In this document: piece by piece, positions 3,478-61,631 of the stretch | How the letters are laid out: each line of letters begins with the position of its first letter | How positions within the stretch are numbered: position 1 is the first letter of the stretch | Origin: Octopus vulgaris | Lineage: Eukaryota | Assembly (NCBI GenBank): GCA_951406725.2 | Contig: OX597820.1 | Coordinates: 96,534,001 to 96,598,000, forward strand | Direction: 5' to 3' | DNA length: 64,000 bases | Notes under the pieces: model-generated | The model's input: the letters and a program-made list of their open reading frames with translations, nothing else | What the model was told of the DNA's origin: nothing | Database searches by the model: none | Program-made: the position numbers and the translations under genes

Positions 3478-4060
3478 ATTGCTACTCGACCTTAATCCGT
3501 TTGTCTCTCCTTGTTTGTCCTCTCTGTGTTTAACCCCTTATAGGTAGTAAAGAAATAGGTGTTTCGTCTGTCTTTACGTTGTGAGTTCAAATTCCGCTGA
3601 GGTCGACTTTGCCTTTCATCTTTTCGGGGTCGATAAATTAAGCACCAGTTACGCACTGGGGTCGATGTAATCGACTTAATCTGTTTGTCTGTCCTTGTTT
3701 GTCTCCTCTATGTTTAGCCCCTGGTGGGCAATAAAGAAATAAGAAACGTTACAACGCTGGGCGAAATACTTAGCAGTATTTCGTCTGTCTTTACGTTGCG
3801 AGTTCAAATTCCGCCGAGGTCTTACTTTGCCTTTCATCCTTTCGGGGTTGATAAATTAAGTACCAGTTACGTACTGGGGTCGATCTAATCGACTGGTCCC
3901 GTTTCCCAAAATTGTGGGCCTTGTGCCTTGAGTAGAAAAGAAAAGAATCGTTAGTATACTGGGCAAAATGCTTAGCGGCATTTTTCCGTCTTCGTGTTCT
4001 GAGTTCTGAGCTCAAAGGTCGGCTTTGCCTTATATCCTTACAGGGTCGATAAAATAAGTA
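3478..4060 (+). mobile_element. Tandem or partial copies of SINE family B
   Basis: Repeated GAGTTCAAATTCCGCCGAGGTCGACTTTGCCTTTCATC...GGGGTCGATAAATTAAGTACCAGTT blocks. Confidence 0.8.
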
Positions 4061-26539: not shown

Positions 26540-27479
26540 CACAAGGCCTGAAATTTTGCGGAAAGTGGGATGCTAGTTGATTACATCGAATCACAACGAG
26601 CAATTGGTACTTATTTTATCGACCCAGAAAGGATGAAAGGCAAACTCGGCCGCGATGACATTTGAACTCAGAACCTAAAAACTAGCGAAATACCTATTTC
26701 TTTATTACCCACAAGGGGCTAAACACAGAGAGGACAAACAAGGACAGACAAACGGATTAAGTCGATTATATCGACCCCAGTGCGTAACTGGTACTTATTT
26801 ATTCGACCCCTAAAGGATGAAAGGCAAAGTCGACCTCGGGGGAATTTGAACTCAGAACGTAGCGGTAGACGAAATACCTATTTCTTTACTACCCACAAGG
26901 GGCTAAACACAGAGAGGACACGCAAGGACAGACAAATGGATTAAGTCGATTATATCGACTCAAGTGCGTAACTGGTACTTAATTTATCGACCCCTAAAGG
27001 ATGAAAGTCAAAGTCGACCTCGGCAGAATTTGAACTCTCAACGTAGCGACAGACGAAATACCTATTTCTTTACTACCCACAAGAGGCTAAACACAGAGAG
27101 GACAAACAAGGACAGACAAAGGGATTAAGTCGATTACATCGAACCCAGTGCGTAACTGGTACTTAATTTATCGACCCCTAAAGGATGAAAGTCAAAGTCG
27201 ACCTCGGCAGAATTTGAACTCTCAACGTAGCGACAGACGAAATACCTATTTCTTTACTACCCACAAGGGGCTAAACATAGAGAGGACAAACAAGGACAGA
27301 CAAACGGATTAAGTCGATTATATCGACCCCAGTGCGTAACTGGTACTTAATTTATCGACCCCTAAAGGATGAAAGGCAAAGTTGACCCCGGCGGAATTTG
27401 AACACAGAACATAACGGCAGACGAAATACAGCTACGCATTTCGCCCGGCGTGCTAACGTTTCTGCCAGCTCGCCGCCTT
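26540..27479 (-). repeat. SINE family B head plus four tandem 184-bp bodies and a partial unit
   Basis: Junction TACCTATTTC at 26691, 26875, 27059 and 27243 gives a period of exactly 184. There is a single head at 27427-27479. Confidence 0.9.
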
Positions 27480-31194: not shown

Positions 31195-31225
<31 letters not shown>

Positions 31226-31294
31226 TACATACATACATACATACATACATACATACATACATACATACATACATACATGCATACATATATACAT

Positions 31295-35767: not shown

Positions 35768-36670
<903 letters not shown>

Positions 36671-36706
36671 TTACATCTCCGTAATATATATATATATATA
36701 TATATC

Positions 36707-51900: not shown

Positions 51901-52057
51901 TTTAATGTACTTCCACACAACCATCTGCAACTGTGCTAGTTTCCAGTGACGTTTGGAAAAGACCCTTCCGTTCGAAGTATTATCTTCTCATTCCATGAAA
52001 AGATGATACTTTGTTCTCTCCATAACTGTCATGTACTTTATGTGTAATTTTATATTC

Positions 52058-52373
52058 ATTGCAGCGTGGAAGGTGTTTGTAAGCCATTTAAGAAACACAC
52101 AAAAGCCGTTCGATTCACTTCAACATTTAAGTTTAATTTGTCAAAATATTTTCGTCGCTTTAAGATCGCGACCTATTCACTGACAAAAATCCGTGCTGCA
52201 TCTCTTTTTGTCAGTGAACAGGTCGCGGTCTTAAAGCGACGAAAATATTTTGACAAATTAAACTTAAATGTTGAAGTGAATCGAACGGCTTTTGTGTGTT
52301 TCTTAAATGGCTTACAAACACCTTCCACGCTGCAATTGTTTTCGTTTCAGCGCACGATCTCAGATCAAGTCAC
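52058..52373 (+). mobile_element. Palindromic mini Penelope-like element (copy 2)
   Basis: 132-bp arms 52058-52189 and 52205-52336 (2 mismatches), a 37-nt 3' extension, and a 15-bp direct repeat TTTATATTCATTGCA at 52049 and 52374. Confidence 0.85.
52207..52257 (+). ncRNA. Minimal type I hammerhead ribozyme, G3-C8 core variant (antisense copy 52137-52187 has G3-U8)
   Basis: TTTGTCA-GTGAACA-G-GTCGC(ggtcttaaa)GCGAC-GAA-AATATT-T-TGACAAA, with a 7-bp stem I and a 5-bp stem II. Confidence 0.75.
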
Positions 52374-53043
52374 TTTATATTCATTGCAAGCAATCAATGT
52401 GTATTTTGTTAGAACATCTGTATGTAGCATTCTGATTTGTTGCCAAGTTTAAAAAGAATTTGAATGCATGCACTATTTTGCTTCCAAGTAGACAAGTGGC
52501 CCGAATCCTTGAAGAAAATAAATAACTGTAGGCGTAATTGTCTGGTTTGACAAACTTTTGGGGCTAATAGATTAGAGAGAAATATTTTTTTTATGCTTCT
52601 GGGTGCATGAAGGAAAAAAGTAACCCCCGATTCTGAAACTGAACATAATTGATTATTGTTATGTATGCTGTTCTTTAGTTAGGTAGCAGCTTCGGTGCAT
52701 TAGTTGCAACTGCTTGGTGATAATCATCATCATTGTTAGGTGTCTCACGCCGTAGTTAATGATAAAGATCGTCGCTTTGGTTCAGTTTAAGGCCTAACGA
52801 CGGAATTCCATTTTCTTGCGGATACCCTTCTTTGTCCTCAATGGCAATAAATATTAAGCTGAAAATGGCATCCTTTTAATCAACTTTGATTATAAAAAAT
52901 TTCGATTTTGAACCCGGTGTCTGAAGTTTTCAGATCTTGTCTGTGATTTTGTCATAATGCAAACAGTTTACAAATAACCACAAACTTCCATCAACATTAG
53001 GAACAAAACTCAGAAGCTGAGTGGTGATTTTGAGGATGCTGCT

Positions 53044-60874: not shown

Positions 60875-61069
60875 TATTTTATTAGACTCTTTTTATAGAA
60901 TGGCTGAGTTTGTCGAGTAATACCTCGTTCAGTGAAGTAGATATTTGAAGGCATTCACATCGACACACACACACACACACACATACATACATACACACAT
61001 ACATACATATACATACATATATACATACATACATACATACATACATACATACATACATACATACATACA

Positions 61070-61103
<34 letters not shown>

Positions 61104-61120
61104 CATACATACATACATAC

Positions 61121-61631
61121 ATGGTGGCTGCCCCCTCGTTATCGAGTATGGCCATTGCACGAAGCTAAATCAATGTTGTTATCGTGCAATACCTGTGCAA
61201 GGAAATTTTGTTTTAAAGTGACGAAAGGCTGTACGCTGAGTCAATCCCACTCACTAAGCAACAGCAGCCATAATCCGAAAAGAAGAACAAGTCAACATCA
61301 TCGGTAACCACTGAGCCGCAGGTTTTATGTCGGAGTTATCCCAGTTACCTGAGTTACCTTCTCCTAGAAGGATGCCCTAACAAAGGCTAGGAGTCTTTCA
61401 CTCCCAATGGTTTAACTGCGCGATCGGGGTATTAAGTCCGATTATTTCTATGTCCCCGCGCATGATACAGCGTTAAGACATTTATTGGATGGCCGTTGAC
61501 TCTCAAGAGTTCCTCCGCCCTTTGACGGGTTTTGTTTTTCATCCGGCAGGGTGTCCAATAAACACCTTCCTTACCAAGCAAGCTTGGTGGGGTTGCCGGT
61601 TTAGTCGCCGACGACCTGACCATGCAACAGG
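61121..61631 (-). mobile_element. Non-autonomous bipartite RTE (5' leader fused to 3' tail)
   Basis: The 3' end GCAATGGCCATACTCGATAACGAGGGGGCAGCCACC(ATGT)n resembles the RTE tail at 8581-8620. Internal AGCCTTTGTTAGGGCATCCTTCTAGGAGAAGGTAACTC resembles RTE 5' UTRs. No RT ORF. Confidence 0.7.

Follow-up and report, generated by a model that had tools for sequence, protein, structure and literature searches.

Judged from its sequence, the palindromic insertion at 52058-52373 of the window (the whole stretch of 64,000 nucleotides of Octopus vulgaris DNA that was analysed) is a piece of the terminal repeat (pLTR) of an autonomous Penelope-like element with a linker of the Neptune/Nematis type. It carries a hammerhead motif in which the C3-G8 pair of the core is inverted to G3-C8, and this inversion characterizes the whole family of copies. 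The 3-8 pair is a structural signature of the active hammerhead. The interpretation that we consider reasonably probable is that of a truncated inverted pLTR insertion whose motif descends from a hammerhead and acts as a slow, conditionally active ribozyme. It is likely the natural version of a hammerhead variant that was found described only as a laboratory mutant. The features of the window on which the argument is built are the following:

52049..52063, + strand: left 15-nt flanking direct repeat (target-site duplication), whose last letters overlap the inverted arm
52058..52204, - strand: inverted arm, extending from the more upstream of the 3' end points (CAATTG) to the 5' start shared by the copies
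52137..52187, - strand: other hammerhead copy, carried by the inverted arm, with a C8-to-U change private to it (G3-U8)
52205..52373, + strand: direct arm, 5'-truncated terminal repeat (pLTR) of a Penelope-like element
52207..52257, + strand: minimal type I hammerhead motif with a G3-C8 core, 51 nt, predicted cut after U52250
52207-13 and 52251-57, + strand: stem I of the hammerhead (UUUGUCA/UGACAAA)
52214-20, + strand: core GUGAACA, with G3 at 52214 and C8 at 52219
52221, + strand: inserted G after A9
52222-26 and 52236-40, + strand: stem II of the hammerhead (GUCGC/GCGAC)
52241-43, 52244-49 and 52250, + strand: GAA, the palindromic AAUAUU of stem III and U17, respectively
52307..52375, + strand: first codons of the RT-endonuclease ORF, matching the frame of the long ORF of the full-length copy L134
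52337..52373, + strand: tail present in one arm only, about 23-25 nt short of the common 3' end of the family
52374..52388, + strand: right copy of the target-site duplication
36389..36692, + strand: another insertion of this family, within (TA)n; inverted arm at 36389-36487, direct arm to 36692

The coordinates of the motif at 52207-52257 agree with the complete minimal type I hammerhead with a swapped core that had been noticed in the initial annotation. All the features of the minimal Penelope-type hammerheads are present, with the sole exception of G3-C8 in the place of C3-G8; the CUGANGA consensus, which has C3 and G8, is therefore not matched. A descriptor accepting any Watson-Crick pair at 3-8 found two matches in the window, this motif and its sibling at 36505. 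The predicted fold is modest, since the monomer reaches a minimum free energy (MFE) of -14.5 kcal/mol (z = -1.98) and 9 of 200 shuffled sequences folded as well. The AAUAUU sequence is palindromic, and a double-hammerhead fold is feasible, at an estimated -25.4 kcal/mol; two separate monomers, at -12.4 each, are barely less stable. The MFE predicted for a two-copy RNA (-30.6 kcal/mol) corresponds to a different fold. A search of the motif against Rfam gave 14 matches at E-values up to 10, with no hammerhead model among them, and the matches of this motif and of its canonical sisters (see below) were hairpin and repeat artifacts. Since the canonical sister motifs likewise had no hammerhead model among the 150/176 matches listed, this result is uninformative about the swapped core. 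The case for a hammerhead, as made from sequence comparisons, is carried by context and covariation, folding energy aside.

The two arms of the palindrome (52058-52189 and 52205-52336) are 132 nt long and 98% complementary, as first described, and differ at two positions in all, 52219 and 52228. The former is position 8 of the hammerhead, so that the minus-strand arm reads G3-U8. No spacer separates the arms: the intervening 15 nt belong to the inverted arm, which reaches 52203-04, and form its 5' leader. The annotated 15-bp target duplication does correspond to an identical 15-mer found twice in the window (52049-63 and 52374-88), but its true length is uncertain because the last letters of the left copy and the first two of the right one also match the element. 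The short 3' extension reported next to the palindrome is similarly present, but turns out to be the start of the ORF of the element and to end about 23-25 nt before the usual end. The direct arm (52205..52373) is 93-94% identical to each pLTR of L134. The transcript of the whole insertion is predicted to form a single long hairpin (-227.5 kcal/mol), which would bury the hammerhead motif of the window copy. In the second insertion, at 36389-36692, the inverted arm is shorter, and the G3-C8 hammerhead at 36505 contains a U.G pair in its stem I. Elsewhere in the window, 60975-61122 and 31217-31284 match the 3' UTR of the element at 74-77% and are possibly old relatives or a shared repeat; a tandem repeat with a spacing of 184 bp occupies 1977-2710 and 26602-27453, with an inverted copy at 3491-3755.

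The parent of these insertions was reached by walking upstream from the motif, through about 1.1 kb of 3' UTR and then into an ORF ending in a GIY-YIG domain. In the locus L100, an open frame of 996 codons contains RT motifs, a CX3CxxC linker and GIY-YIG (Pfam PF01541, E = 1.8e-5, above the cut-off), and single ORFs with RT and C-terminal GIY-YIG were found in L100, L101 and L134. The ORF of the element itself had no RVT_1, PDB or NCBIfam match; RVT_1 was matched by three of the eight homologues tested, one of them above the cut-off. L134 is a full-length copy made up of an inverted truncated copy, a pLTR, the ORF from an ATG at 3834, the 3' UTR and another pLTR. Its two hammerheads (at 3738 and 7999, 4,261 bp apart) are both G3-C8, and its ORF carries two frameshifts. 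The 3' end of the family is continuous with this ORF (the junction was obtained from L099), and its ATG corresponds to 52307 in the window. The connection to an RT/GIY-YIG ORF of Penelope type that had been proposed is thus borne out by L100 and L134. The pLTR-ORF-pLTR order of L134, the inverted 5'-truncated partner and the tail are those of EN+ Penelope-like elements, and the CX3CxxC linker of L100 and the (TA)n that follows most 3' ends are those of Neptune/Nematis elements. A fuzzy hammerhead match at L099:6113 was false. Fragments of other RT-encoding retroelements lie beside family insertions at L062:3-947, L062:7395-8377 and L096:3-1712.

The distribution of the motif was studied in the genome (2.8 Gb, 227 contigs), whose assignment to an octopus agrees with the closest match to a named protein (Octopus vulgaris, 57% identity). 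A loose G3-C8 descriptor gave 8,371 matches (84 in the control) vs 366 for the canonical C3-G8 descriptor (86 in the control), and a strict pattern that left these two positions (3 and 8) free gave 4,339 (none in the control), the first 100 of which included 97 with G3-C8. This pair was present in 136 of the 145 copies examined and is the core of the whole family, in keeping with the earlier remark that CUGANGA scans would miss the motif. All 93 matches to the strict family context with another letter than G at position 3 were inspected: 8 had changed from G to C and none was C3-G8. On the other side of the pair, G3-G8 copies, which are predicted to be inactive, made up 47 of the first 100 of 225 non-C8 matches; they occur on all the loop-2 subfamily backgrounds, at about 10 times the frequency expected from the mirrored mutation at position 3. 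A mutational hotspot, minor source elements or a relic intermediate could be behind this excess. The subfamilies differ in loop 2 and outside the motif, one common stem variant retains a U.G pair, and the AC-insertion subfamily, apparently older, also has G3-C8. The family is present, with a variable loop 2, in contig sets of four other organism labels, where no core variant reached 5% (one of these sets has 3 contigs only). The variants listed for the window copy begin at 52234, probably through an end effect, and the core lies outside their reach. A match at C1:12071835 was considered as a second G3-C8 family, but no other locus joined it (L173) and it is probably a chance match.

Copies of the family are about 97% conserved across the entire region, and N7 is no more variable than the core (122 rows, from which duplicates from overlapping loci were removed only in part). 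This near-uniformity means that the core is not singled out by comparisons within the family, and the preferential conservation of the core that had been anticipated among copies does not appear at this level; it does appear across sister families, where the other core letters are kept. These relatives were reached via hammerhead-pattern searches only. Two of them, B and C, account for 11 and 2 of the first 30 canonical-core loci, respectively. They have C3-G8 at the homologous place and are homologous to the swapped-core family in the tail, and pieces of their ORF, 38-50% identical to that of the swapped-core family, are found upstream in L153, L154 and L167 and downstream in L170.

The three families were aligned in 18 rows (5 of the swapped-core family, 11 of B and 2 of C). 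At positions 3 and 8, 13 rows have C-G, 5 have G-C and none is unpaired. Five of the nine pairs counted change on both sides, among them two of stem I and two of stem II, and 95% of the cells pair vs 16-53% in slid controls; the pairs counted are our selection, with only two from stem I and the distal stem I of family B (which has a bulge) left out. U4, G5 and A6, A9, G12, A13 and A14, A15.1-U16.1, G10.1-C11.1 and H17 are invariant. The covariation at 3-8 that was to be expected thus holds in the sense that the pair is kept in 18 of 18 rows, but the swap is one evolutionary event that is counted five times. A change on both sides that keeps the tertiary pair fits the prediction of a maintained hammerhead fold. 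The motif likely descends from a standard Penelope minimal hammerhead in which C3-G8 was replaced family-wide by G3-C8; the polarity, with C3-G8 as the putative ancestral state, is based on the two sister families and the literature rather than on a tree. Other canonical-core minimal hammerheads with unusual registers of stems I and III occur in a repeat family at L143, L144, L151, L160 and L172 and in a further family at L158 and L159 (about 1500-1540); tests for a link to an ORF gave no positive result for either.

The short copies share their 3' end, often followed by (TA)n, and vary at the 5' end. The leader is spanned by 1,448 matches; of the first 100, 43 continue into the genomic sequence upstream, and the other 57 begin within 10 nt of AGATG. 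A G at -1, preceded by variable bases, is present in 33 of these 57, and 10 of the 33 can be explained by the sequence of an inverted arm (the 57/33/10 tally was made by eye; a script applied to the first 30 matches gave 7/17). The inverted arm of the window ends likewise, with an extra G at 52204 that we regard as likely cap-derived. In L1, the addition of an untemplated 5' G has been linked to cap copying (PMC9341517, in part); given this precedent and the G at -1, we infer that transcription starts at AGATG. The common start and the extra G suggest that the short copies are run-off cDNAs from capped, uncut mRNA. A different account of this start, which we consider rather unlikely, makes AGATG the 3' end of an intron, so that the short copies would come from spliced RNA and the G would owe nothing to a cap. 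The upstream sequence does resemble a branch point, a pyrimidine tract and YAG, and an intron of the D. virilis Penelope ends at the 5' side of helix I of its hammerhead (PMC4209133 and PMC2377424, in part). Yet the copies retain the AG and the added G, the preceding bases vary where a common upstream exon would be expected, and the tie between an untemplated 5' G and cap copying in L1 (PMC9341517, in part) also speaks against splicing.

Starting from a capped mRNA, the following scenario may be proposed. The first transcribed base would be the A of AGATG, some 22 nt upstream of the core. Reverse transcription would be initiated internally, at two sites within the first ~90 nt of the ORF, and proceed to the capped 5' end, giving cDNAs of about 150-205 nt, two of which, joined head to head, would form the palindrome with its one-sided tail. 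The cut after U17, 57 nt before the ATG, would strip the cap and a leader of about 57 nt. Copies that span the motif necessarily come from RNA that had not been cut, in keeping with slow or late cleavage, and the ribozyme would be slow, cutting only as a dimer or with the help of the protein of the element. The window copy would itself be a dead product of insertion. In PAc, a Poseidon element of Anolis, two internal RT start sites within the first codons of the ORF set the tail and both strands are extended (PMC11167929). In two of 22 head-to-head pairs (L006 and L029, about 1440-1700) the two arms belong to different subfamilies, which implies two RNA templates in one insertion.

These observations bear on the status of the palindrome, which the initial annotation had taken for a distinct, young, non-autonomous element of about 310 bp. 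An element of this kind, similar to a MITE or a SINE and replicating as a ~310-bp unit, would account for the predominance of short copies, for the inverted partner seen in 15 of the 30 best matches, several of them with the junction of the window, and for the short tandem arrays of the unit (L142). Nevertheless, the arms are ordinary segments of the autonomous pLTR and run on into its ORF, an inverted arm is missing from the other 15 best matches, neither the junctions nor the lengths of the arms are constant, the shared junction is found on differing subfamily backgrounds, and arms are mixed in the 2 of 22 pairs just mentioned. No fixed unit replicating apart from the parent ORF, as in MITEs, SINEs or retrozymes, was found, and the MITE and miRNA-hairpin readings are rejected given the pLTR nature of the arms. 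We thus hold a separate mini-element to be very improbable and consider, from the architecture of L134 and the continuity with the ORF, that the palindrome is an ordinary insertion product of the parent element. Two arrays may be described here: L142:7100-8440 has 8 hammerhead units spaced by 166-192 bp and joined by (TA)n, the transcript of which would be a natural multimer resembling a retrozyme, and L138:6600-7450 is a tandem array with two G3-G8 units.

The motif could be a relic that no longer cleaves, its fold being kept for dimerization or protein binding, with G3-C8 fixed by hitch-hiking or by folding alone. No peak of copy starts was seen by eye at the predicted cut in the first 100 of 934 matches, among which indel variants dominate; two clear and two ambiguous copies start there, and neighbouring bases give similar numbers. 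This agrees with a relic, as do the excess of G3-G8 copies on all loop-2 backgrounds, the insertion in vitro of hammerhead-dead mutants of the anole element, no RNA reads of which end at the cut site (PMC11167929), and the success of Naiad elements, which thrive without canonical hammerheads (PMC8557442, in part). However, the 3-8 pair could be restored only by a specific second transversion, every other letter of the core is kept across families whose flanks have strongly diverged, and the engineered double mutant C3G/G8C partially rescues cleavage, both in a Penelope hammerhead (PMC11167929) and in another study of hammerheads (PMC8495972, in part). We consequently regard a relic as improbable, though less so than a separate mini-element. 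Cleavage by a slow ribozyme under particular conditions is the reading that we retain: the minimal hammerheads of Penelope elements cleave poorly, as dimers (PMC4209133 and PMC6765202, in part), and cleavage in the anole Penelope hammerhead requires protein (PMC11167929).

A tentative extension is that a successful retroelement crossed a valley of two transversions by way of an inactive hammerhead, so that the inverted 3-8 pair would now be the wild-type core of the minimal hammerhead that is the most abundant of its form in the genome. If this were true, it would be evolutionary evidence of selection on Penelope hammerheads even though insertion in vitro can do without them; slow cleavage would be favored, since the cut would decap the mRNA and remove the template of the short copies; and a whole class of natural hammerheads with swapped cores would be absent from the CUGANGA-based censuses. 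In this genome, most such motifs escape scans with a fixed CUGANGA (8,371 vs 366 matches). A natural inversion shared by a whole family, next to canonical homologues, offers a comparison for whether and how fast Penelope hammerheads must cut, and the shared 5' start and extra G suggest a route to thousands of SINE-like copies without a non-autonomous master.

A natural G3-C8 hammerhead was not found in the full-text literature searched, and this novelty is provisional as key variant studies lie outside that search; in print, G3-C8 occurs as an engineered mutant (PMC11167929; also PMC3884650, in part). The main text of the octopus repeat annotation (PMC13282606, in part) has Penelope-like families and, in that portion, neither 'hammerhead' nor 'ribozyme'. 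The closest natural motifs are the minimal hammerheads in the pLTRs of metazoan Penelope elements (PMC4209133, in part). The window family shares with them the pLTR location, an extra base between 9 and 10.1, G10.1-C11.1, GAAA, a short palindromic stem III, H17, AU-rich flanks, thousands of truncated copies and opposite-strand pairs, but the inserted base, G here, has the consensus H there. Fig. S3 of that work (in part) has 53 C3-G8, two U3-A8 and one U3-G8 among 56 motifs and none with G3-C8, the descriptors used there having a fixed core. The U3-A8 variants, known among natural hammerheads (PMC3088659, in part) and in the Cercyon elements of Schistosoma (PMC4209133, in part), share with the window family a natural covariation of the 3-8 tertiary pair; they would require two transitions through a U.G wobble, whereas G3-C8 would take two transversions through a mismatch. 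As for the elements, those of the Neptune/Nematis type (PMC8557442, in part) have in common with the octopus family the RT, a CX2-5CxxC linker, a C-terminal GIY-YIG, (TA)n targets and an inverted 5'-truncated partner with a tail, which is about 59 nt here vs 30-40 there. PAc Poseidon of Anolis (PMC11167929) shares the hammerhead near the start of the ORF, a tail in its first codons, two 3' end points and AT-rich targets, and its mutant with the swapped pair is partly active. Unlike PAc, the window family has a linker resembling a Zn finger in its ORF and an ATG 57 nt after the cut site, and the swap, which in that member of the Penelope/Poseidon clade is a laboratory mutant, is here the wild type.
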